This document shows positions 3,053 through 43,077 of a stretch of DNA of 64,000 nt, piece after piece. How positions within the stretch are numbered: position 1 is the stretch's first letter; every line of letters starts with the position of its first letter. The stretch comes from an uncultured bacterium (GTDB lineage Bacteria > Desulfobacterota > Deferrimicrobia > Deferrimicrobiales > Deferrimicrobiaceae). The notes beneath the pieces were generated by a model. The model did not search any database. It worked only from the letters and a program-made list of their open reading frames with translations, and was not told where the DNA came from. Made by a program: the position numbers and the translations under genes. Where the stretch lies: positions 211,862-275,861 of the forward strand of contig CAWHIM010000037.1 in the NCBI GenBank assembly GCA_963829245.1, written 5' to 3'.

Positions 3053-4210
3053 ATGACCTTCAAGGAGAGTTACGAGGAGATACGACACGCCGTGCACGAT
3101 CTGTGCAGCCGGTTCCCGGATGCCTACTGGCGCAAGGTCGATGATTCCCGCGGGTACCCGGAAGAGTTCGTCAAGGCGCTTACGGACGCCGGGTGGCTTG
3201 CGGCCCTGATTCCCGAGGAGTACGGCGGTTCGGGACTGGGGGTGACCGAGGCTTCCGTCATCCTGGAGGAGGTGAACCGCTCGGGTGGCAATTCCGGGGC
3301 CTGCCATGCGCAGATGTACATCATGGGCACCCTGCTTCGGCACGGGTCGGAGGAGCAGAAGCGGGCCTACCTCCCGAAGATCGCATCCGGGGAACTGAGG
3401 CTCCAATCCTTCGGCGTCACCGAGCCGAACACCGGCACCGACACCACCAGCCTGAAGACCACCGCGGTGCGCAGGGGAGACCGGTACGTGGTGAACGGGC
3501 AGAAGGTTTTCATCTCCCGGGTGCAGCATTCCGACCTGATGACCCTCCTGGTCCGCACCACCCCGCAAAGCCAGGTGAAAAAGAAATCGGACGGGATGTC
3601 GGTTCTCCTTGTGGACCTGCGGGAGGCGATCGGTCACGGCATCACGGTCCGGCCCATCCAGACCATGATGAACCATGAGACCAACGAGCTGTTCATCGAC
3701 GACCTGGAGGTGCCCGTCGACAACCTGATCGGCGAGGAGGGGAAAGGGTTCCGGTATATCCTCGACGGGATGAACGCGGAGCGCATCTTGATCGCGGCGG
3801 AGTGCGTCGGCGACGGGTACTGGTTCGTGGACCGGGCCACCGCCTACGCGAAAGACAGGGTGGTCTTCGGCCGCCCGATCGGCCAGAACCAGGGGGTCCA
3901 GTTCCCCATCGCACGCGCTTACGTGAACATCGAAGCGGCGAACCTGATGCGGTTCCACGCGGCGGAGTTGTTCGATCACGGGAAACCGTGCGGCGCCGAG
4001 GCGAACATGTCCAAGCTCCTGGCGGCCGACGCCTCTTGGGAGGCGGCCAACGCGGCGATCCAGACCCACGGCGGATTCGGGTTCGCCTCCGAATACGACG
4101 TCGAGCGGAAATTCCGGGAGACGCGGCTGTACCAGGTGGCTCCCATCTCCACCAACCTGATCCTCTCCTACGTCGCCGAGCACGTCCTCGGACTTCCGAG
4201 ATCCTACTGA
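3053..4210 (+). CDS. acyl-CoA dehydrogenase
   Basis: 385 aa. GVTEPNTGTDTTSLKTTA, AAECVG and QTHGGFGFASEYDVERKFRETRLYQVAP are classic ACAD signatures. Confidence 0.9.
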   Translation: MTFKESYEEIRHAVHDLCSRFPDAYWRKVDDSRGYPEEFVKALTDAGWLAALIPEEYGGSGLGVTEASVILEEVNRSGGNSGACHAQMYIMGTLLRHGSEEQKRAYLPKIASGELRLQSFGVTEPNTGTDTTSLKTTAVRRGDRYVVNGQKVFISRVQHSDLMTLLVRTTPQSQVKKKSDGMSVLLVDLREAIGHGITVRPIQTMMNHETNELFIDDLEVPVDNLIGEEGKGFRYILDGMNAERILIAAECVGDGYWFVDRATAYAKDRVVFGRPIGQNQGVQFPIARAYVNIEAANLMRFHAAELFDHGKPCGAEANMSKLLAADASWEAANAAIQTHGGFGFASEYDVERKFRETRLYQVAPISTNLILSYVAEHVLGLPRSY

Positions 4211-29543: not shown

Positions 29544-32329
29544 TTGCGATTCGGCAATACAATAAGGCCCATTCGATACGGGGGCGAAACGCTGGCTGAT
29601 ATCCTCCATTTCCTTCTGGTCCCTGACAAGTCTTCCGGAAGGAAGGTTCGCCGGGCGCTTGCATCCGATGGCGCCCGCTGCGGTGTCGTCGTCGGAACAT
29701 TCGGCGAGTTGGTGGATCAGTCGTGCAAAGCCTACCTCCTGAAACCCACCGAAACGGATTGGATGGAACGATTGGGCGAGGCGTCCCGAAAAGTAACGGA
29801 CGCTTTTTGGTCGGATAGCCTGAAGGCGGACCCGGACGGGTCCGTGGCGGTTCTCGACCGGGAGCTGCTACGGCTCCTTGCGGCCTTGGGGCCGGGGCGG
29901 GATCTCGCGCCGGTCGGAGAAATCCCGACTGTCCGACCGCGGGAAGCGGCACCTGGCGGATCTGTCGCGGCTTCACAAGGCGATGGGCCGCGATCTTCCC
30001 GATGGCCTCATGACGATCCGAAACTTGCTCGCGGCGGACGGGATCGAGGCCCTTCGGATCGTCAAGGTCTATCGTAAGGCCGGCTTTCCCTCTCTCTCCC
30101 CTTGGCAGGAAGCACTTCTCGGAAAACTCGCGACCGATGCCACGGGAGCGGGCGATCCGGAGCTTGAAACGATTCTCGCCGGTTGCCTGCTCCCTGGTCC
30201 CGCGGGAAAGGCAAAATCTGCCCTCAGACACCTCCAGGAAAACCTGTTTCGAACCGGTCCCTCGAAAGTCGCACTGGACGATTCCGTCACCTGCCTCGGC
30301 ATTAGGGATCTCCTCGAAGCGGCGGAGATCGCGGCGGGGATGATCCAAAGGGCGCTCGATGGCGACTCCCGGCTGGCAACATCGGAGATCGGCCTGCTTC
30401 TTCCGGGCGACGGATCCTGCGAAGATGCGGTGCGGGAAGTCTTCTCGAGGGCGGGGCTGCCGGTTTCCGGCCTGGAGGGGTCCCCCCGGCTTCGGAACCT
30501 CGGGGGCGAAGCGGTGTTCCTCTTCCTGGCCACCCGGCGACGGCCTGCTCCGGCGATGGCGCTTGCCGCCCTCTACTCCTCACCGCTGATGCCTTGGGAC
30601 GCTGCGACAGGGAACCGGCTCGCGATGCGGATCATGGACGGAAAATATCGTCCGGAAGCGCCGGCCGAAATGCCCGCCGAAGGGCGGCGGATGATGGATC
30701 TCCTGCGGGAAGAGCATGAGGCGCCAAGGTCCCTGGCGGAAGCGCTGAAGACCTTCGGATCCCTCCTGGCCGGTTCCGCTCCGATGGCTCGGCATGCCGA
30801 GGCGGCACGCGCCGCCCTCGAATCCCTCGGGGAAGCGATCCGGCGGATCAAGGGAAAAGATGTCCCTTGGGAGGAGCTCACCTCCCTCGTTCCGCAGGCG
30901 CCAGTCCCTTCCGGCGCGGGCCTCGAGCTGACCCGGGAAGGTGTGGCGCTCTTCCTCGAAAATGAGGAGCCTTGGCGGCCCGTCCGGATCCTCTTCGTCC
31001 TCGGTTTTTCGGGGGGACGATACCCGACAGGACCGGATCGTTCCCCGGTCTTCGATCCACCGGACACGGCCGCCCTGAAAGCGGATCACGGATACGCCCT
31101 CGAAACGCCGGAGGAGGGGATGGCGCGGCGGCGGGATCTTTTCCTCCGACAGTTGGGCGTGGTCAGCGATCGCGTCGTATTCCTTTCCCCGTTGCGGGAC
31201 GCGATGGGGGAGGATCTCGCTCCATCGGGGACCATCACCTTCATGTCCCGTCTCTATAAGGGGATCCAGTCGCCCGAAGATCTCTTGCTGATCCTGGAGC
31301 GGGAGTCGCACCGGTCGAGGGTCAAAGGTCTTGCGGAATGCTCCCCCGGCGGATCCTGTTCTCACCGGGGTTCTTGAGGTCCGGGATCCGGATCTGAAAA
31401 TCGACCTGCTGGTCGACGGGAGCGGGAAGCTCAGGCCGCTCTCGGCTTCCGGCTTCGATACCCTGATGGTTTCCCCCCTGGCCTGGTTCCTCCAACGGGA
31501 AAACATCGTCCCCCTGCGTTGGGCGCCGGAGGAACTCGACCCGATGACGAAGGGGACGCTCGCCCACGAGGTGTTCGAGAACCTGTTCCGCGCCGGGACT
31601 CCTCTGCCGACCGCGGCGAAGATCAAGTCCGCGGCCGGGAAACTTCTCAACGAAGCGATTCTGCGTCACGCACCGTTCCTGACGGGGTCCGAGTGGTACG
31701 TGGAGCGCCGAAACCTGCTGAACGACGTGGAAACGGCCGCGCTCCGCTGGAGGGACCTCCTTGATCGCAGCGGTGCGAACATTCTCGGCGTTGAAACCAG
31801 TCTCACCGGCGTGTTCGAGGGCGTGCCGATCCGAGGCCGGGCGGACCTTCTCCTGTCCCTCCCCTCGGGGCGCCTCTTCGTTGTCGACTACAAAAAGTCG
31901 ACGAGCCGGAGCCGCCGGAAGTGCATGGAGGAAGGATACGACCTCCAGGCCTCCCTCTATCGGCGGATGCTCCGCTTCGGCAAGGTGGCCGATGGGGGTG
32001 TGGAGGCGCTGGCCCGGGCGCTCAATGAAGGAGGAGAGATCGGGGTCCTTTATTACATGATGGACGACCAGCGGGCGCTGACCGACACGTCGGGCTGGAT
32101 CCCGCGCAGCGTCTCCGGGGTGCAGGAGCTGGGGAGCGAGATCTCGCGTAACGGCGAGGTCCTCGTTCGCGAGCGGATCCGGGCGCTCCGATCGGGCAAG
32201 ATCCCCCTCAACCGGGAGGATGACGCTGAAACCTTCGATAAGATCGGTGTGAAGACATACGCGCTGGAAGACAGCCCGCTGGTGATGCGGTTCGCCCACC
32301 CCGCGCCGGAAAAAGAGGACGTGGAATGA
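29544..32329 (+). pseudogene. AddB-like PD-(D/E)XK nuclease subunit, read in three frames (two apparent frameshifts or a split gene)
   Basis: ORFs 29544-30077, 29878-31377 and 31331-32329 step frames 0, +1, +2. The last part carries a RecB-type nuclease core (GVPIRGRADLLLSLPSGRLFVVDYKKS ... QASLY). Its stop overlaps the start of the downstream helicase (ATGA). Confidence 0.55.
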
Positions 32330-35300
32330 CGATCCCCCGGCTCACCGTCATCCCCGCCGGTGCAGGGTCCGGGAAGACGTACCGGATCCAGACGCAGCTT
32401 GCGGACTGGGTGGTCAACGGACTGGTAGCCCCCGAGCGCATTCTTGCGGTGACGTTCACGGAGGCCGCCGCGTCGGAGCTGAAGGAACGAATCCGGTTCG
32501 AGCTCGTGAAGCGCGACCGGATCGAGGATGCGCTGAAGCTCGAGGAGTCGTACATCTCCACGATCCACGGGTTCGGTTTGCGGCTTCTCACCGAGTTCGC
32601 CTTCGAGGGGGGGATCTCACCGTCCCCTCGACTCCTCAATGACGACGAACAGGGGTTCCTCATCCGACGGACGCTGGCGAAGACGGGGAAGGCGGATGCC
32701 GTCGCGATCAACCTGCGGAAGTTCGGATACCGATACGACCCGGTGAACAAGACGAGCGCCGAGGATGTCTTCCTCGATACGCTCCTGTCGTTGATCGACC
32801 GGCTCCGTTCGCTGGGCCGGAAAGGGGAAGATCCCGCGTTGGTCTCCGGGGCCGTGGATACGCTCCGACGGATCTACGGCCCGGTGGGAAACGCCGACGC
32901 ATTGAATCGTGCGCTCCACGGGTCCGTTGCACGCCTGCTGGAGCGATTCCCGGGAGACCTCTCCCCGGGGTTCGAGGGGAACGCCTCCGCGAGCGGGGAT
33001 TTCCGGGAGAACTTCCGGAGTTTGCGCCGAGCCGAGGATTTGGAAGAGGTGGCTTCCGATTGGAGCCTGTGGCTATCCCTGCGGAAGTTGCGCGTTTCGG
33101 GAAGAGGGGGAAAGGTCCCGCCGGGGTACGAGGATCTTGCGGGTGAGGTAATGTCCGCGGCAGGGGCGCTTCAAAAACACCCGGGGCCGCTGGCCGACGC
33201 GGAGTTGCACGTTTCGGCCCTCCTGGGGGCGAGCCAGGATTGCCTGGGAACCTACGGGGAGGAGAAGCGAAAGGCGAGTCTGGTCGATTTTCCGGACATG
33301 CTGGCGGGCGCCCACGAGATCCTCGCGAATCGTCCCGACGTCCTTGCGATCCTGAAAGGCCGTGTCGACTGCCTGGTGATCGACGAGTTCCAGGACACCA
33401 ACCCCCTCCAATTCTCTCTCCTGTGGAAGATCCGGGAGGCCGGGGTCCCTGCGCTGGTCGTCGGTGACGTCAAGCAGTCGATCATGGGGTTCCAGAATGC
33501 AGACCCACGCCTGTTCGAGCAGCTCGAGAAACAGTACCCGAAGGCCCGCGAGCCGCTGACCTTCAACTGGCGGGCTTCGGGGCCGCTGATGGAATGGGTC
33601 AACGCGGTGGGAGAAGGGCTGTTCGGGGCGGCGTACACGCGTCTGACGCCGAAGGCGGATTTCAAGAGCACGCTGGAATCCGCTCGAGGTCGTCGATGCC
33701 CCGAAATATATCCGTTCCGGTAGAAAGCGAGCCTCGTGGACGGCGGTGCGGATCAAGGCACTCCTGGAGGACGGGAAAAGCAAGGTCTGGGATAAGTACG
33801 CCAAAGTCTCGCGTCCCATTCGCGGAGGCGATCTCGCGCTCTTATGCCCCACTCGCAAACTGGTCGACCTGTATGCGGAGGTCTTGCGGGCGCTCGGGAT
33901 ACGCACTCGGATCGAACAGGACGGCTGGTACGGGTCCGGGGAGGTTCGGATTCTCCTTCACGCTCTCGAATACATCGCGGACGCCGACGACCGGCATGCC
34001 GCGCTCTACCTGGCGGTAACGGAACTCGGGAACCAAACCCTCGAGGCCGCGCTTGCTTCCCTCCGGCGCGGCGAGTCTTTGAAGGACCCGCTGCTGGAGA
34101 CGCTGGATCCGGTGAGGGCCGCGGCCGCGGACAAGACCATCGAGATATTGGTCTCCGAGGTGATCGTCGCGCTGGACCTCTACGGGAAGGCGGCCCTTTG
34201 GCCCGATGCCGCCCAGGCGCGTGCCAACATTCTTCGGTTTGAAGCGGAGGCGCGGGAGTTCCGGGAGGTGAACCGCCAGGTGCTCCTTTCGGGTGGATAT
34301 TACGGAACCGGGATCAAGACGTTCCTGTCATGGCTTGCCGCCAGGGTGGAGGAAAACGATGCGCAGCCGGATCCGCGGGTCGTGGACGAGGACGCGGTGA
34401 CGGTCACGACGTGGCACAGTTCCAAGGGGCTCGAATGGCCGGTCGTCGCGGTCTGTGGCATGCACCGGCAGATCAAGCCGCGCCTTCCCGACGTCTCGGT
34501 CACCTACGACGACTTCGATGATCTGGCGAATATCCTCCGGAAGGCCCGGGTCGAGATCGTCCCCGGCTTTGCGGCGGAGGAGACGACTGCGGCCTTTCTC
34601 GGACACCTCCAACCCGCCATGGAAGAGGAGGCGAGGCGGCTGCTCTACGTGGCCCTGACCCGCGCCCGGGAGAAGGTGATCGTCGAATGGCCGAGCCATC
34701 TCGCGGGGAAGGAGAAGTCGAATTACTGGTCCCTGCTCGTCGGGGCGGCGGGAATGGTCCTGGAGAAAGGCGGGATGCGGGTGAACGGAAAGGCGTTCCC
34801 TTCCGTCGTGAACCTGGCGGAAACGGACCTTGCCCCCTCGGTAGCCGCGTCCGAAGGGGAGCCGATCGCGCCGCTTTCCACGATCGGCCGGCGAGCGATC
34901 GCATATCGCTCTCTCCCGGTGAACCTGACGCCGGAGACGGTCACCCCCTCGCTGCTGCACGGGGATCCGGGGGAAGCTTCGCTCGCGGGACTTCTGCAGG
35001 AGGAAACGTACGGATCACCTTTCGAGACCGACCTGGAGGTCGTAGGGGCAGACCGCGGGCTGTTGCTGCATAAAAATTTCGAAATCCTGGGTGGCCGGCC
35101 CGGGCGCGTGGATCTCCTGGAAAGGGCAACCGGAGTGACGATCGACAAGAAGGGGTGCAGCCGGCTCGAAAGCGCGGTGGCCGATTTCGAGCGATGGTTG
35201 GTGGGGCGCTTTCAGCCGATCTCTGTTCGGCGTGAACTGCCTCTTCTGGGAGTGGACCGGCATGGGAGCGTGGTATCCGGCGTGGCCGACCTTCTCGTGG

Positions 35301-35506
35301 AAACGGAGGAAGGATACTGGATCCTCGACCATAAGTCCGACATCACGGACGACCGCGCCGCGCGCTTCGAGGCGTATCTCCCGCAGCTTCGTTGTTACGC
35401 CGGCCTCATTGATAAAGCGTTCCCCGGAAAGCCGGTGCTGGGGGTCGCGATCCATTGGATCACATATGGGAAGGTCAGCCTGCTTTCGGGGGAGAGGTCC
35501 GCATGA
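32326..35506 (+). pseudogene. AddA-like UvrD/REP helicase with C-terminal PD-(D/E)XK nuclease, one frameshift near 33672-33690
   Basis: Walker A AGAGSGKT, motif II LVIDEFQDTNP, VVGDVKQSIMGFQNA, and NWRASG. The frame breaks after PKADFKSTLE and resumes in +1 as LEVVDAPKYIRSG... The C-terminus has GVADLLVETEEGYWILDHKSD. Confidence 0.8.
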
Positions 35507-36409: not shown

Positions 36410-36977
36410 ATCGCTACCTCCTATTGTTGGTTACCGTTTCATTAAAACTAGATGTTGGCGGACTTTCCCTGGTTTCGTAGTCACCGTTGTATTCGCCGTT
36501 CGGGCTGGTATGATCGGTACTACGACACGCTCCTTGACAGCAGGATCCCTTCCATGGATCAGGCCGGCACTTACGGTAGGAATCCACACCACGGCATGGT
36601 TTCCAACACTTGATGGAGGACGCCACGATGGGGACAACGGCAACGGAAGCACGCGACAATGTCTGCCTGCTGGTTCTGGTGAATCCCAACGAAAACCCGT
36701 ATGAAAGATGCCGCCCTGAGGAGTGCAGCGTATGGTCGTGGGAGGACTGCTGCAACGCGAGCGGAAACCGGCTCGGCCACTGCGTCCTGGTGGACGAGAC
36801 TGTGCTGCCCGCCCAACAAAAATAAAAAATCAGCGAGAGCTTCGGAGGAAGCAGGGCACCCGCCCGCGCTACACCGGCGAGTGCCCTCTGGACAAGTTGC
36901 GTGCTCCTCGCCGCATCCGCGATCATAATCTCCAGTCTTCGAAGCGGACTTGTGAAAATGCCTGGGGGCTCTCACCG

Positions 36978-37781
36978 ATGATCGATAAACGCCGATCCCG
37001 CCTCCCGATCCCCCTTTTGACAGTCTTACTCGGAGTCTCGTGTATCGGCAAGGCTTTGCCTGTCGCGCATGCAACGACCATTGCAGGAATACGCACGCCG
37101 GCACAGGTGGTCATCGCGGCCGACAGCTTGGGGACGGCACGGGGATATCGGATCGAATCGACGCAGCCCGTCTGTAAGATATTTGCGGTGAAAGATTCCG
37201 CCTTCGCTATCGCCGGACTTGTAAGAGACCCCGTATGGAATTTCGATGCGGAGAACCTGACCGCGGACATTCTCCGGCGGAAAAACCGAGTAACGGAGAC
37301 CGCAAACGATCTTACGGAGCGGCTGGAGGCCATGCTCGGTTCCTACCTGGAGCGCCTGAAGAAGGGGAACCCTTACCTCTATGGGAAGTTGCTCGAAGAG
37401 CAGGGCGGGACCGTCACCTCTATTCTGCTTGCTGCTTACGAGGGGGATCAGCCCGTTGCGATTGGGATCTCATTTCGTGCATCGGAAGAAATGGGCGGTC
37501 GCGTCAAGATTACCGCAACGCGGGTAGCCTGTCCGGGGGATTGTCCGGACGGGGTGATGTATTTCTTTCTGGGCGAACGGCGCCCGATCGACCGATACAT
37601 TGCGGAACATGGCAGGGATCGCTTGGGGCCGGCGGATTCCGCCGCCCCCTTCCTGGTTCAGTTGGTCATTGATGGAGGGTCGAAGCTTGTCGGTCCTCCC
37701 ATCGACGTGATCGTTATCGACAGGCAGGGAGTATCTTGGCTTGCCCGGAAAGAAGGATGCGGAGGCGCGCCTTCCCCATAA
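36978..37781 (+). CDS. signal-peptide-bearing Ntn hydrolase resembling proteasome beta / HslV
   Basis: MIDKRRSRLPIPLLTVLLGVSCIGKALPVAHA followed by TTIAGIRTPAQVVIAADSLGT...CKIF...AIAGL. The TTI.G...VV.AAD block, the Asp at +17 and the Lys near +33/35 mirror the Thr1/Asp17/Lys33 proteasome pattern. Confidence 0.6.
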   Translation: MIDKRRSRLPIPLLTVLLGVSCIGKALPVAHATTIAGIRTPAQVVIAADSLGTARGYRIESTQPVCKIFAVKDSAFAIAGLVRDPVWNFDAENLTADILRRKNRVTETANDLTERLEAMLGSYLERLKKGNPYLYGKLLEEQGGTVTSILLAAYEGDQPVAIGISFRASEEMGGRVKITATRVACPGDCPDGVMYFFLGERRPIDRYIAEHGRDRLGPADSAAPFLVQLVIDGGSKLVGPPIDVIVIDRQGVSWLARKEGCGGAPSP

Positions 37782-39764: not shown

Positions 39765-40586
39765 CTACCGGTTCAGCAGGGAGGTCATCCGTTCCAGGTG
39801 TTTCCGTTCTTCCCGGGAGAGCGCCAGGAAAACCTCTCTGGACCGTTCGTCCGCGACGGCCCTCCCCATCTTGATATAACGGTCCAGGGCGTTCGCCTCC
39901 ATCGCGATGGAGAGTTCGAGGATCTCCTCCAGCGTCTTTCCTTTGGCCCACGCCAGCGTCTCTTTCAGCGGAGCTCCTCCCTCCAGAAATTCACCTGCCT
40001 CCATCCCTTCCAGGTGCGCGGGGTTTCCGCCCTTTCCGGAGACCCGGGCGTGAAGTTCACGGAGGGTTTCCTTGTGCCGCTCCTCCGCCTGGCCCATCGA
40101 CCGGAAGATCGAAGCGGCTTCCTCCTCTTTCAGGTCCTGGGAAATGCGCTCATAGAAGACGCGGTTCCCCTCCTCGAGAGCGAAGGATAGCGAAACCAGC
40201 TCTTCGGCCCGTGACGCCCGGGAGAAGTACGCAAGGCCTGCTTCATAAATCCCTTCCGCCACGACGCCGTTCCAGGCATCTATCCCTCCCGCCATGCTGT
40301 GTACCTGCGAAAAGCCGGCCTCCGAAAGCGTTGCCGCAGCGGCACGGCTGCGGACCCCGGCCTTTCAATAGGTGATGGTCGGCTTGGACCGGTCGAGGTC
40401 GCCGAGGCGATCCGTCAGCTCCGCCATCGGAATGAGCCGGGCTCCCGGAAGATGCCCGCTTTCGTACTCTCCCGGTTGTCGCACATCGACGAGATTGTAG
40501 GATTCGGCACTCTTTTCCCGAAGGAAAGCGCGGACCTCCCCGGCGGTCCATGTGGAAACGGGTTTGAAATAGTCGAAGATTCCCAA
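39765..40586 (-). CDS. selenocysteine-containing rhodanese fused to a ferritin/rubrerythrin-like di-iron domain (273 aa, Sec at codon 74, TGA 40367..40365)
   Basis: ORFs 40586->40365 and 40295->39765 are in frame. Read-through gives ...SKPTITY-U-KAGVRSRAAAATLSEAGFSQVHSMAGGIDAW, so the rhodanese active-site loop C-[RK]-x-G-x-R-[ST] has Cys replaced by TGA. The C-terminal domain has E...EERH...E...EERKH ligand spacing. Confidence 0.7.
40334..40353 (-). promoter_or_regulatory. putative bacterial SECIS hairpin for the rhodanese gene
   Basis: UGA + 11 nt + CCGCAGC-CGUGCC-GCUGCGG: a perfect 7-bp stem with a 6-nt loop containing GU. Confidence 0.5.
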
Positions 40587-40613: not shown

Positions 40614-41748
40614 TCATTCCTCCCGCGATTCGCGGAGTTCTCCGGATACCTGGAATTTTCGCATGAATCTCAAGTCGAGGTAGTTCTTCAAGCGGAAGGC
40701 AAGCCGACCGCTCCAGACGATCTCTTTCCGCCGGAAAAGGCCCCTGCGATCTCCCAGGTTCAAGATCAGGAGATAGTCGCCCCCGGGATCGAATCGTTGA
40801 AGAGGCCTCCCGTCGAGAAACGCCGAAAGGTTTTGGTGGAGGGGGCGGTTCTGGCGCACGGCATAGACGCCGACCCGGGCCAGGGGGGATCCCGCCAGGG
40901 AGATGCAATCGCCGCCCCCGAACAGTTCAGGGTGGTCCACGCACTGCAGGTAATCGTTGACCAGCAGCCCCCCGTCCTCTCCCGTTGGAAGGCCCGAATT
41001 CCGAAAGAGCGGTGACGGGCTGATCCCGGTCGCGACGAACACCATGTCTCCCTCGAGAATCGCGCCGTTTTCCAACCGGATCCCTCCGTTGGCAATCGAT
41101 TCCGCGGAAACCCCCTCGATCGATTCGACCCCCCACCGGGCGAGGGCTCCTCGTGCCAGCGTACGCGCCTTCTCGGGGAAATCGCCAAGCACGTTCGACC
41201 GGGATACGAGAGTGATCCTTCCGATCCTGTCCGTTTCCTTCGCAAGATGCCCCAGATTTGCGGCAATTTCGACGGCCGCGGATCCTCCGCCCAGCACGAT
41301 GACGCGGATCCTCTTTCCGGCGTGGGCTTCCAGTATCTTCCTTCGCGCGGCAAGGATGTTCTCGATCGGCTTGACGGGAAAAACGTTATCGCCGGAGGGA
41401 TGGAGGAGATCCAATGGGACCGCGCTCCCCGTGTTGAAGGAGGCGGCATCGTACCGGACCTCGGATCCCGAACCGAGAACCAGGGCGCGCCGGACGGGAT
41501 CCACCAGGACCACGCGATCCTCGATGAACGTTGCCCCCCGGTCTTGCGCCATCTTTTTCACGTGGAAGCGGGCCTCGGCGGGCCGGTATATGCCCGGAGA
41601 GCAGGCCGGGACCCATTCCCGAATAGTAGTGATACGGGGAAGGGCCGATCAACGTGACGCGGTGCCCGGCCCGCACGGTATCCCGCAGGTTTGTCAGCGC
41701 CGTAAGGTGGGCGTGGCCGCCGCCCACGAATACCAAGTGCTTCGGCAT
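40614..41748 (-). pseudogene. FAD-dependent pyridine-nucleotide-disulfide oxidoreductase with one frameshift near 41585-41596
   Basis: The N-terminal part reads MPKHLVFVGGGHAHLTAL...RVTLIGPSPYHYYSGMGPGLLSGH in one frame. The continuation YRPAEARFHVKKMAQDRGATFIEDRVVLVD...VIVLGGGSAAVEIA...GGGDC is in another. Confidence 0.75.
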
Positions 41749-41970: not shown

Positions 41971-43077
41971 TCAACGATGTCGATGTGGCGCGAAAGCCTC
42001 CGGCACCTTGATCCGGGAAATCGTATATGTGCGGACATCCTCCTCGGGTTCGTCCCCCACAGTGGATGTCAGCGGAAGAGCGAGATTCGTCACGAACGCG
42101 CTGCCTTTTGAAAAAACGATGCTTGCCGGAAAGAGGAGTCCCCGGGGCGCACCATTTTCCCGGATGCCGAGGAAGTCGCCGAGGATTGCGACCACCCGCC
42201 CATTCCCGTTCAGCACCACGATTTCGTCAGCCTGGTTCGCAGCGACCCAGAGGTGTCCCGAAGTGTCGAAGGCGATTCCGTCAGCCCCGTTGATGCTTTC
42301 GGCGAAAACATCCACTTTTTTCGTCCCGAGATCCATCCGGAGTATCCGGTCGTCCCCGGTGTTGGCGATGAAAAGGCTCTTCTCGTCGGAGCTGAAAGCG
42401 ATCCCGTTTGCCCCAAAGGGGGGGAATCCCGTTGTCGCCAACAGCGCGTCGTGCGCGAACGTGGTGACGGGACAACTCACCGAGCAAATGTCGACGTGCT
42501 CGATCTGAAAGATCGCTCCCTGGAACGAATCGGAGACGAACAAGGAGCCATTGCTGTCGAAAGCCATTCCGTTCGGTGCGGAGGCATTGTTGCCGAAGTG
42601 GATCCCATCCTGGCTTCCATCCGGGTTGTCCACGGTCCGGTCCGGCGGGGCGCCGATGTGCGGAAGGAGGGCCACGTCCTCGATCGGGGTACCTTCATGA
42701 AAATCTGCGGGGATGCGCTGGATCTTCGATTGGGAACCCACCAGGTCCCCCGTGTTGCAGATGTACACCTTGCCGTCCGCCAGGTTGAATGCAAGACCCA
42801 GTAACGGTGTCCCCCCGAAATCCTTTTGCGAGACCAGCTTTCCGTTCGCCTTGAATCGAAGGAGCTTGTTGTTCCCATTGGAATCGAACGTGGCCACGAA
42901 GATTTCCCCGGTATCGGGATTGACTGCTATCCCTTCGGGGAACCGTATGCCATCGGGAAGCTGCACGAACTCCTTGGCGGCTAACCGGTCCACGATGAGC
43001 CCGCTGTCACCCCAGGCAACGATTGCCGATGCCGATAGCACAATGGATACCACCAGGCAAGATATCGTTTTTCGCAT
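41971..43077 (-). CDS. secreted beta-propeller protein (SMP-30/gluconolactonase/LRE-like)
   Basis: 368 aa with a signal peptide. Repeated PEGIAV / PNGMAFD / ANGIAFS / ADGIAFD blade motifs. Confidence 0.65.
   Translation of the reverse strand: MRKTISCLVVSIVLSASAIVAWGDSGLIVDRLAAKEFVQLPDGIRFPEGIAVNPDTGEIFVATFDSNGNNKLLRFKANGKLVSQKDFGGTPLLGLAFNLADGKVYICNTGDLVGSQSKIQRIPADFHEGTPIEDVALLPHIGAPPDRTVDNPDGSQDGIHFGNNASAPNGMAFDSNGSLFVSDSFQGAIFQIEHVDICSVSCPVTTFAHDALLATTGFPPFGANGIAFSSDEKSLFIANTGDDRILRMDLGTKKVDVFAESINGADGIAFDTSGHLWVAANQADEIVVLNGNGRVVAILGDFLGIRENGAPRGLLFPASIVFSKGSAFVTNLALPLTSTVGDEPEEDVRTYTISRIKVPEAFAPHRHR

Follow-up and report, generated by a model that had tools for sequence, protein, structure and literature searches.

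Locus and coding features

The stretch of DNA considered here, hereafter the window, comprises 64,000 nucleotides from an uncultured bacterium of the family Deferrimicrobiaceae (GTDB phylum Desulfobacterota; GenBank assembly GCA_963829245.1, contig CAWHIM010000037.1, positions 211,862 to 275,861) and carries on its forward strand, at 36978–37781, a gene for a putative exported hydrolase related to proteasome beta subunits and HslV. Translation of the open reading frame (ORF) from the ATG at 36978 to the stop codon at 37779–37781 gave a product of 267 amino acids in which MIDKRRSRLPIPLLTVLLGVSCIGKALPVAHA stands directly before TTIAGIRTPAQVVIAADSLGT, followed by the blocks PVCKIF and AFAIAGL. 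Both the ORF and this sequence had been reported in a preliminary description made from the sequence of the window, and they were reproduced by our translation and by a manual check of the key codons. Our analysis of fold, conservation and leader properties indicated that the product is probably an extracytoplasmic Thr1 hydrolase of the proteasome-beta/HslV type, synthesised as a 267-residue precursor whose nucleophile is unmasked by signal peptidase.

The ATG at 36978 is the supported start codon because nearly all homologues start at the equivalent Met and are 260–275 amino acids long. Longer N-termini were present in two gene calls, a mechanical ORF of 352 amino acids starting at a GTG (36723) and the public gene call P0001 of 349 amino acids, so that in comparison to 267-residue homologues both are over-extended by approximately 82–85 residues. 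A signal peptide would be hidden from automated predictors by such an over-extended call. A sigma-70-like promoter and a terminator were looked for around the hydrolase gene and none was found.

Fold and superfamily membership

The Pfam Proteasome family (PF00227) matched the window protein at residues 29–84 only, with an E value of 1.2e-4 and a score of 22.2 bits where the cut-off lies at 22.4, and the same family was matched individually by 30 of 63 diverse members of the protein's own family (E ≤0.01; best 8.3e-7). A search of PHROGs returned the 'peptidase HslV family' (E 1e-5), and matches in the viral library were to phage proteasome/HslV-like proteins. When a profile of 33 family sequences was compared with PDB sequences the matches were almost solely proteasome alpha and beta subunits together with HslV, and a larger profile of 63 sequences gave HslV (E 2e-5) and BPH (E 3.5e-5) as its best matches. 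Profile alignments placed the Thr column of the family (T33 of the window protein) on the first residue of the mature chains of HslV, BPH and beta2. Comparison by hhalign with Escherichia coli HslV, of which the first 114 residues were taken from a PDB alignment, gave a probability of 93.2% (E 3e-7) and paired T33, D49, K67 and G80 with T1, D17, K33 and G45 of HslV. These sequence-profile alignments stop short of the C-terminal half, where the Ser129/Asp166/Ser169 region lies. The only match of a single-sequence PDB search was Aca7, which was judged to be due to chance, and profiles were thus required; NCBIfam matches fell far under their cut-offs and were disregarded, and a PADLOC search gave no match.

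Structural modelling with AlphaFold2 gave a mean predicted local distance difference test (pLDDT) score of 84.7 for the full-length protein, the leader being of low confidence, and a score of 96.5 with a predicted template modelling score of 0.93 for the mature domain (74 sequences). The mature model showed the canonical S1–S12/H1–H4 topology of an alpha-beta-beta-alpha sandwich that lacks H5, its strands (E) and helices (H) following the order E,E,E,E,E,E,H,H,(H),E,E,E,E,H,H,E,E. An extra helix at mature residues 100–112 occupies the site of the 'pore-loop' insertion that was described previously (PMC8665760). Foldseek comparison of the model to the PDB returned 20S subunits exclusively among the top 50 matches except for Anbu at rank 47, all with a probability of 1.00, and the best match was PrcB of Mycobacterium tuberculosis (E 7e-9). 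The Ntn (N-terminal nucleophile) fold of proteasome-beta/HslV type that was proposed in the preliminary description was recovered by Foldseek, hhalign and profile searches alike, and no other fold was assigned. The window protein belongs to the proteasome-like superfamily and is neither HslV nor a 20S beta subunit proper.

Family distribution and conserved residues

A first homologue search identified 77 relatives, of which the named ones were proteins from metagenome-assembled genomes (MAGs) of Candidatus Deferrimicrobium or Deferrimicrobiaceae, a lineage for which the NCBI taxonomy has its own phylum, Candidatus Deferrimicrobiota. When 1.84 billion representatives of clusters at 50% identity were searched exhaustively with a profile, 3,584 clusters had an E value of ≤1e-3, of which 2,059 reached ≤1e-10 and 371 reached ≤1e-30. 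Further carriers included an Acidobacteriaceae MAG, Candidatus Korobacteraceae and several megabase-scale contigs, and one carrier contig also possessed Por_Secre_tail, SprB and CHU_C genes that are typical of Bacteroidota. A scan of genome contigs with tighter alignment gave four loci, hence the taxonomic spread reported here is under-sampled. Family DNA was present in metagenomes from soil, wetland, peat, groundwater and sludge. Where labels were given, members were annotated as 'hypothetical protein' save for three automatic 'Proteasome subunit' labels, and for distant members the cluster records supplied neither name nor taxonomy. Two members, P0223 and P0281, came from a single assembly (ERZ25039458), where each lies on a separate contig of megabase size, and these could be paralogues within one Acidobacteria-like genome or could derive from two organisms of one metagenome.

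Conservation was calculated for 231 diverse members, most of which share less than 50% identity with the window protein, and is given in the numbering of the mature domain, where T33 is residue 1. The catalytic positions were almost invariant, with Thr1 at 97%, Asp17 at 100%, Lys35 at 100% and Gly48 at 97%, and most of the members lacking Thr at position 1 carry Ser. The Thr1, Asp17 and Lys near position 33 (here 35) that had been recognised in the window alone were recovered both in the HslV alignment and across the family, and retention of the Thr in homologues had been named beforehand as a check. Other highly conserved positions were Ser18 (98%), Gly167 (95%), Pro209 (98%) and Trp222 (94%).

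Leader and predicted cleavage site

The leader of the window protein consists of an n-region (M1–R8) with basic residues at K4, R5, R6 and R8, an h-region from about L9 or L12 to I23 with the core LLTVLLGVSCIG (Kyte-Doolittle mean of 2.67 over seven residues), and a c-region from G24 to A32 that ends in A30-H31-A32 before T33. Signal peptidase sites were called throughout with a home-made set of −3/−1 rules. According to this rule scan the window protein has only two candidate sites, of which AHA↓TT is the sole canonical −3/−1 site with a normal c-region and the other is poorer. This is the A-x-A site directly before the Thr-Thr pair to which the preliminary description had drawn attention. 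Of 144 diverse leaders examined, 97 have a rule-compliant signal peptidase I site at exactly this place before the Thr.

A survey of homologues for signal peptides, which had likewise been suggested at the outset, was carried out on 201 leaders that are 15 residues or longer (median length of 27 residues). A hydrophobic core of nine residues was present in 195 leaders and Lys or Arg N-terminal of the core in 186, and at −1 there were 144 leaders with Ala, 29 with Gly and 5 with Ser (178 of 201 for the three together). The residue at −3 was mostly Ala or Ser. Within the close clade of the window protein Ala at −1 was invariant. Where a leader was short or only weakly hydrophobic, the start codon seemed in most cases to have been called wrongly. 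Ungapped comparison anchored on the Thr showed 17% identity for the leader versus 50% for the 20 residues that open the mature domain, and acidic residues amounted to 0.34 per 20 residues in the former versus 1.77 in the latter. This maintenance of a physico-chemical pattern in the absence of sequence conservation is the signature of a signal peptide and not of a functional propeptide.

Conserved cysteines

Four Cys residues of the mature domain were conserved among the 231 members, namely Cys34 (94%), Cys153 (96%), Cys157 (95%) and Cys229 (99%), which correspond to C66, C185, C189 and C261 of the precursor. Cys153 and Cys157 delimit a CPGDC motif in which the C, P, G and C positions were conserved at 96%, 95%, 89% and 95%, respectively. 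All four Cys were kept in 132 sequences, whereas C66 and C261 were jointly absent in nine and C185 and C189 in six. Loss in pairs points to two disulfides, and from this co-loss we infer pairing of Cys34 with Cys229 and of Cys153 with Cys157. A site in which all four Cys bind a metal was considered and is disfavoured, as the residues are lost pairwise and not singly or all together. Paired Cys of the disulfide type also fit an oxidising location outside the cytoplasm.

Proposed export and activation of the hydrolase

The proposed sequence of events begins with the signal peptide (residues 1–32), which would be of the Sec type and carry the chain across the inner membrane. Signal peptidase I would then cut at A30-H31-A32↓T33 and free the 235-residue domain along with the alpha-amino group of Thr1, thereby taking the place of the autocatalytic propeptide removal of 20S beta subunits or of the methionine aminopeptidase that acts on HslV. 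The alpha-beta-beta-alpha sandwich would fold oxidatively and would probably be stapled by Cys34–Cys229, beside the catalytic Lys, and by Cys153–Cys157. Finally, Thr1, Asp17, Lys35 and Gly48 would hydrolyse an amide bond, most likely that of a peptide, without an ATPase partner. Both the export and the exposure of Thr1 by signal peptidase had been put forward in the preliminary description, and the leader statistics and the coincidence of site and Thr across the family support them in silico.

A number of observations weigh against this interpretation. Foldseek TM-scores to beta subunits were merely 0.5–0.64, from which it follows that the second shell of the active site and the substrate may differ from those of canonical proteasomes, and the residue after Gly167 (the G-S-G slot before H3, the putative equivalent of beta-subunit Ser129) is unconserved among the 231 members, where Y, E, Q, H, K or R can be found. 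The c-region of the window protein is rather long at nine residues and includes Lys25, its n-region KRR is faintly Tat-like (twin-arginine translocation), and a second rule-based site, GKA↓LPV, lies between residues 26 and 27. Furthermore, Gln or Asn occupied the −1 position in 17 of 201 leaders (about 8%; for example ...VSAQ↓TT), and no RNA runs containing the gene were found.

Some of these observations would be expected if processing were mixed, such that export is real and the cut falls upstream of Thr33 (GKA↓LPV, or A↓Q-T) with the remaining stub then removed autocatalytically. Besides the second site of the window protein, the nearest allowed site was one residue upstream of the expected bond in 13 of 144 leaders, the Gln/Asn leaders include a member on a Bacteroidota-type contig to which the Q-rule discussed below would apply, and Gly at −1, typical of beta-subunit autolysis, accounted for 29 of 201 leaders. 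However, the best −3/−1 site is located exactly at the Thr in the window protein and in about 70% of the family, the −1 residue is mainly Ala (144/201) and not Gly, which is a better match to signal peptidase than to autolysis, and the c-region for GKA↓LPV would be just two residues long with Lys at −2. Mixed processing is thus considered unlikely. The same leader features were also weighed with respect to Tat export, where the domain would fold and perhaps oligomerise in the cytoplasm, be exported in the folded state and lose its leader afterwards. The K-R-R n-region of the window clade, the 32-residue leader and the basic Lys25 in the c-region are in keeping with this route, yet the RR pair is followed by S-R-L-P and not by x-hydrophobic-hydrophobic residues, varies within the clade (KHR, GLR or absent) and formed an RRx-hydrophobic-hydrophobic motif in only 5 of 144 family leaders. 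Given in addition the strong hydrophobic core (Kyte-Doolittle mean of 2.67) and the paired conserved Cys that fit oxidative folding after Sec export, Tat export appears quite unlikely.

Alternatively, the protein could be tethered to the membrane by an uncleaved signal anchor or as a lipoprotein, in which case Thr33 would not be N-terminal unless the protein cleaved itself. The lipobox GVSC had been offered as an alternative in the preliminary description, as Cys22 lies inside the hydrophobic segment after G-V-S, and the full-length model shows a lone helix at residues 11–21 that could represent an anchor. The lipobox did not hold, since homologues both close and distant have S, G, A, I, F or other residues in place of Cys22 and the Gly at −3 departs from the lipobox pattern [LVI][ASTVI][GAS]C. 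Most members have a canonical small-x-small site after the hydrophobic core, and if an anchor stayed uncleaved the amine of the strictly conserved Thr would not be free; a tether of either kind is accordingly very improbable. A cytoplasmic homologue with a hydrophobic propeptide that serves assembly or inhibition and is cleaved off by autocatalysis, in the manner of actinobacterial or eukaryotic beta subunits, is scarcely credible. Propeptides of beta subunits also end directly before Thr1 (PMC8665760), and the top Foldseek matches of the full-length model include the propeptide-bearing precursors 3mka and 8yiy, but the tripartite n/h/c leaders of the family are unconserved in sequence and low in acidic residues, their Ala or Ser at −3 and Ala at −1 obey the signal-peptidase rule, the pairwise loss of the four Cys points to disulfides, and a census of proteasome homologues limits propeptides to beta subunits and HslV (PMC8665760).

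Returning to cleavage by signal peptidase directly before Thr1, the members with Gln or Asn at −1 are a subset in which the enzyme would probably cut one residue early, so that one residue is left to remove and some self-processing or other trimming may persist. In Bacteroidota, a Q-rule has been described in which cleavage before Gln leads to a pyroglutamyl N-terminus (PMC5837995, PMC10653852). Gln at −1 (for example ...FGQ↓TS) was observed in P0111, P0117, P0126, P0153, P0154, P0164, P0165, P0174, P0188, P0192, P0194 and P0210. The contig of P0192 carries genes of the type IX secretion system and SprB (Bacteroidota), and the Q-rule there predicts a pyroglutamate with Thr at position 2. The contig of P0165 carries TctC and Tle1-like genes of the type VI secretion system, and the Gln subset may therefore not be purely of Bacteroidota origin.

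On a broader scale, the family could be the founding member of a branch of the proteasome family outside the cytoplasm, a Thr1 protease that is disulfide-stabilised, ATP-independent, activated from its zymogen by signal peptidase and widespread in soil (Acidobacteriota, Deferrimicrobiota, Bacteroidota), and that maybe forms a self-compartmentalising periplasmic ring for envelope quality control or peptide scavenging, the Gln at −1 in Bacteroidota serving as a removable pyroglutamyl cap. We regard this extended proposal, taken as a whole, as doubtful.

Comparison with known systems

Of the characterised proteins, HslV (ClpQ, MEROPS T1B) is the best sequence-profile match and is likewise encoded by one gene. 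The N-terminal motif TTIVxIR...VIAxD...K...AG is common to both, with Thr1, Asp17, Lys33 and Gly45 aligned. HslV differs in being a cytoplasmic protein of about 175 amino acids that begins with Met-Thr and has an adjacent gene for its partner HslU, an AAA+ protein (ATPase associated with various cellular activities), whereas the window protein has a 32-residue leader, a 235-residue mature domain, an extra helix, four Cys and no AAA+ neighbour. In E. coli HslV, Thr1 is exposed through removal of the Met (PMC6429459).

The best structural matches were 20S beta subunits (PrcB and the Thermoplasma acidophilum beta subunit), which share the S1–S12/H1–H4 topology and an N-terminal extension that ends exactly at Thr1. 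In these proteins, however, the extension is a propeptide that is removed autocatalytically, typically after Gly−1, within a cytoplasmic alpha/beta ring, in comparison to the signal peptide, Ala at −1, Cys of the disulfide type and lack of a nearby alpha gene in the case of the window protein. Propeptides that end directly before Thr1 are a documented property of beta subunits (PMC8665760). BPH and Anbu resemble the window protein as stand-alone proteasome-like genes without an AAA+ partner or known unfoldase, but both are cytoplasmic and leaderless according to published accounts (PMC5777263, PMC5666114, PMC8665760), and the C-terminal H5 helix of Anbu is absent from the model of the window protein.

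A census by Fuchs, Alva and Lupas (2021; PMC8665760) described 22 'novel proteasome homologs', divergent prokaryotic families that have conserved Thr1, Asp17, Lys33 and Gly47 and no conserved gene context, as is also the case here. This census restricted propeptides to beta subunits and HslV, and nowhere does it mention signal peptides, periplasm, secretion, cysteines or disulfides, which is in line with the statement of the preliminary description that the known bacterial homologues are cytoplasmic. A search of open-access full texts on proteasome homologues with signal peptides gave no description of an exported bacterial member. MAGs of the Deferrimicrobia once carried the label of Deltaproteobacteria, and for this reason the window family may be the same as the Proteasome Homolog of Deltaproteobacteria (PHD). 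The census gives OGP72033.1 as the representative of PHD (PMC8665760).

A similar logic, by which the protease that removes a targeting signal also unmasks Thr1, applies to the mitochondrial HslV of Leishmania major, which has a targeting peptide directly before 'TTI' that is removed on translocation (PMC6429459). Kinetoplastid HslV nevertheless differs in having a mitochondrial presequence and in functioning within the matrix, a topologically cytoplasm-like compartment with ATP and HslU partners.

Among Ntn hydrolases of Gram-negative bacteria, penicillin V acylases have a Cys1 that is exposed through removal of the signal peptide, a point for which our literature search returned no confirmation. 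Penicillin G acylase, gamma-glutamyltranspeptidase and N-acyl homoserine lactone acylases are comparable as exported, ATP-independent Ntn amide hydrolases, but these periplasmic enzymes belong to other families and their nucleophile is freed by internal autoproteolysis into alpha and beta chains (PMC5474475).

Proteasome-type Thr1 proteases (20S, HslV, BPH, Anbu and connectase) are usually treated as cytoplasmic machines that are activated by autolysis or Met removal, that usually assemble into rings and that often need ATPases. What appears to be new here, as judged from sequence, is the localisation and activation logic and its conservation across a very large uncharacterised family, which fills a gap concerning localisation in the 2021 census. 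If the proposed route is correct, signal peptidase would constitute a third way to unmask the nucleophile, proteasome chemistry would be placed in an ATP-free and oxidising compartment, and the family would provide a simple test system for the proteasome fold without unfoldase or compartment. As thousands of soil-bacterial members are unnamed or labelled 'hypothetical', biochemical characterisation of one of them would annotate much sequence.

Gene neighbourhood

Positions of the hydrolase gene, its features and its neighbours are collected in Table 1.

Table 1. Features of the hydrolase gene and surrounding genes, with positions in the window.
Feature	Positions	Strand	Basis or remark
Coding sequence, exported proteasome-like (T1-type) Ntn hydrolase (predicted)	36978–37781	+	ORF, homologue lengths, family and fold searches
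Predicted signal peptide, residues 1–32	36978–37073	+	Sequence, rule-based site scan, family leader statistics, model
Predicted signal peptidase I bond Ala32↓Thr33 (gca↓acg)	37071–37076	+	Conservation; Thr33 is residue 1 of mature HslV; A32 gca 37071–37073, T33 acg 37074–37076
Asp49-Ser50 (mature Asp17-Ser18)	37122–37127	+	Conservation, alignment to HslV D17; D49 gac 37122–37124
Cys66-Lys67 (mature Cys34-Lys35), tgt aag	37173–37178	+	Lys is the counterpart of catalytic Lys33 (alignment to HslV K33)
Gly80 (mature Gly48), gga	37215–37217	+	Counterpart of oxyanion-hole Gly47 (Gly45 in HslV, 'AGFA')
Extra helix, mature residues 100–112, after H2	37371–37409	+	Model secondary structure versus HslV H1/H2 mapping
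C185-P-G-D-C189 motif, loop between two core strands	37530–37544	+	Conservation; paired Cys loss
Cys261 (mature Cys229), tgc, C-terminal tail	37758–37760	+	Conservation; co-loss with C66
Over-extension in the two longer gene calls	36723–36977	+	267-residue homologues
AddAB/RecB-like helicase-nuclease cluster	31331–35506	+	Upstream
PD-(D/E)XK protein of the cluster	31331–32329	+	
UvrD N-terminal helicase ORF of the cluster	32326–33723	+	
UvrD_C and PD-(D/E)XK ORF, last of the cluster	33746–35506	+	Other frame
Secreted-looking helical protein, 216 amino acids	35759–36409	−	Divergent from hydrolase gene
Lipoprotein-like ORF, 128 amino acids	37963–38349	−	Convergent to hydrolase gene
Terminator-like strong hairpin	38402–38376	−	Just downstream of the 91-residue ORF
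ORF with signal peptide, 91 amino acids	38451–38726	−	
Rubrerythrin-like gene	39765–40295	−	Redox/sulfur cluster
Short rhodanese	40365–40586	−	Redox/sulfur cluster
Pyridine-nucleotide-disulfide oxidoreductase	40614–41561	−	Redox/sulfur cluster
SGL/NHL beta-propeller protein	41971–43077	−	Signal peptide
Pyr_redox_2, Pyr_redox_dim and rhodanese fusion, 701 amino acids	43330–45438	−	CoA-disulfide-reductase-like (CoA, coenzyme A)

The hydrolase gene is flanked by genes on the opposite strand that encode small secreted or lipoprotein-like products, with a UvrD/PD-(D/E)XK helicase-nuclease cluster upstream and genes for a methyltransferase, rubrerythrin and rhodanese/pyridine-nucleotide-disulfide oxidoreductase further downstream. 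No alpha-subunit-like gene was found near it in the window, and neither an AAA+ gene nor any other conserved neighbour recurred in the window or at 14 loci from relatives. Essentially nothing but the hydrolase gene itself is syntenic between the window and close relatives, and distant loci have unrelated neighbours. Same-strand genes upstream at Acidobacteria-like loci (TPR, PEGA and unknown) were considered as operon partners and rejected, as they are mutually unrelated.

The 216-residue protein begins MMRRIFLMAGLFSFLFLNQAVVTPVAYSQ and its sole match was a sub-threshold one to Pfam 'Senescence' (21.1 bits against a cut-off of 24.6). The 128-residue ORF has a lipoprotein-like N-terminus (...ALSMAGGGC↓AKDK) and no Pfam match, and a homologue with about 63–69% identity in translated comparison was found in a relative (locus L002, about 3110–3543), where the two genes are arranged differently and lie approximately 2.5 kb apart. 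The 91-residue ORF, which also lacks a Pfam match, has the signal peptide MKKLLSVLFAVAFAMSVTGFAFA↓AD and a Lys/Ala-rich tail of histone-H1-like low complexity, KKAAKKAAKKKAAKKKAEK. In the upstream cluster the helicase is apparently split by a frame change at about 33723–33746, which could be due to a frameshift or to an error of assembly, or could mark a pseudogene.

Two independent assemblies with members of the P0076 clade have a 92-residue ORF without a Pfam match 55 bp upstream of the hydrolase gene on the same strand (L006 5668–5946 and L007 3597–3875, both +). This ORF has no counterpart in the window and may encode a partner that is specific to the clade. A convergent gene for a 409-residue protein lies downstream in L006 and L008 of the same clade, and the L007 contig ends inside it.

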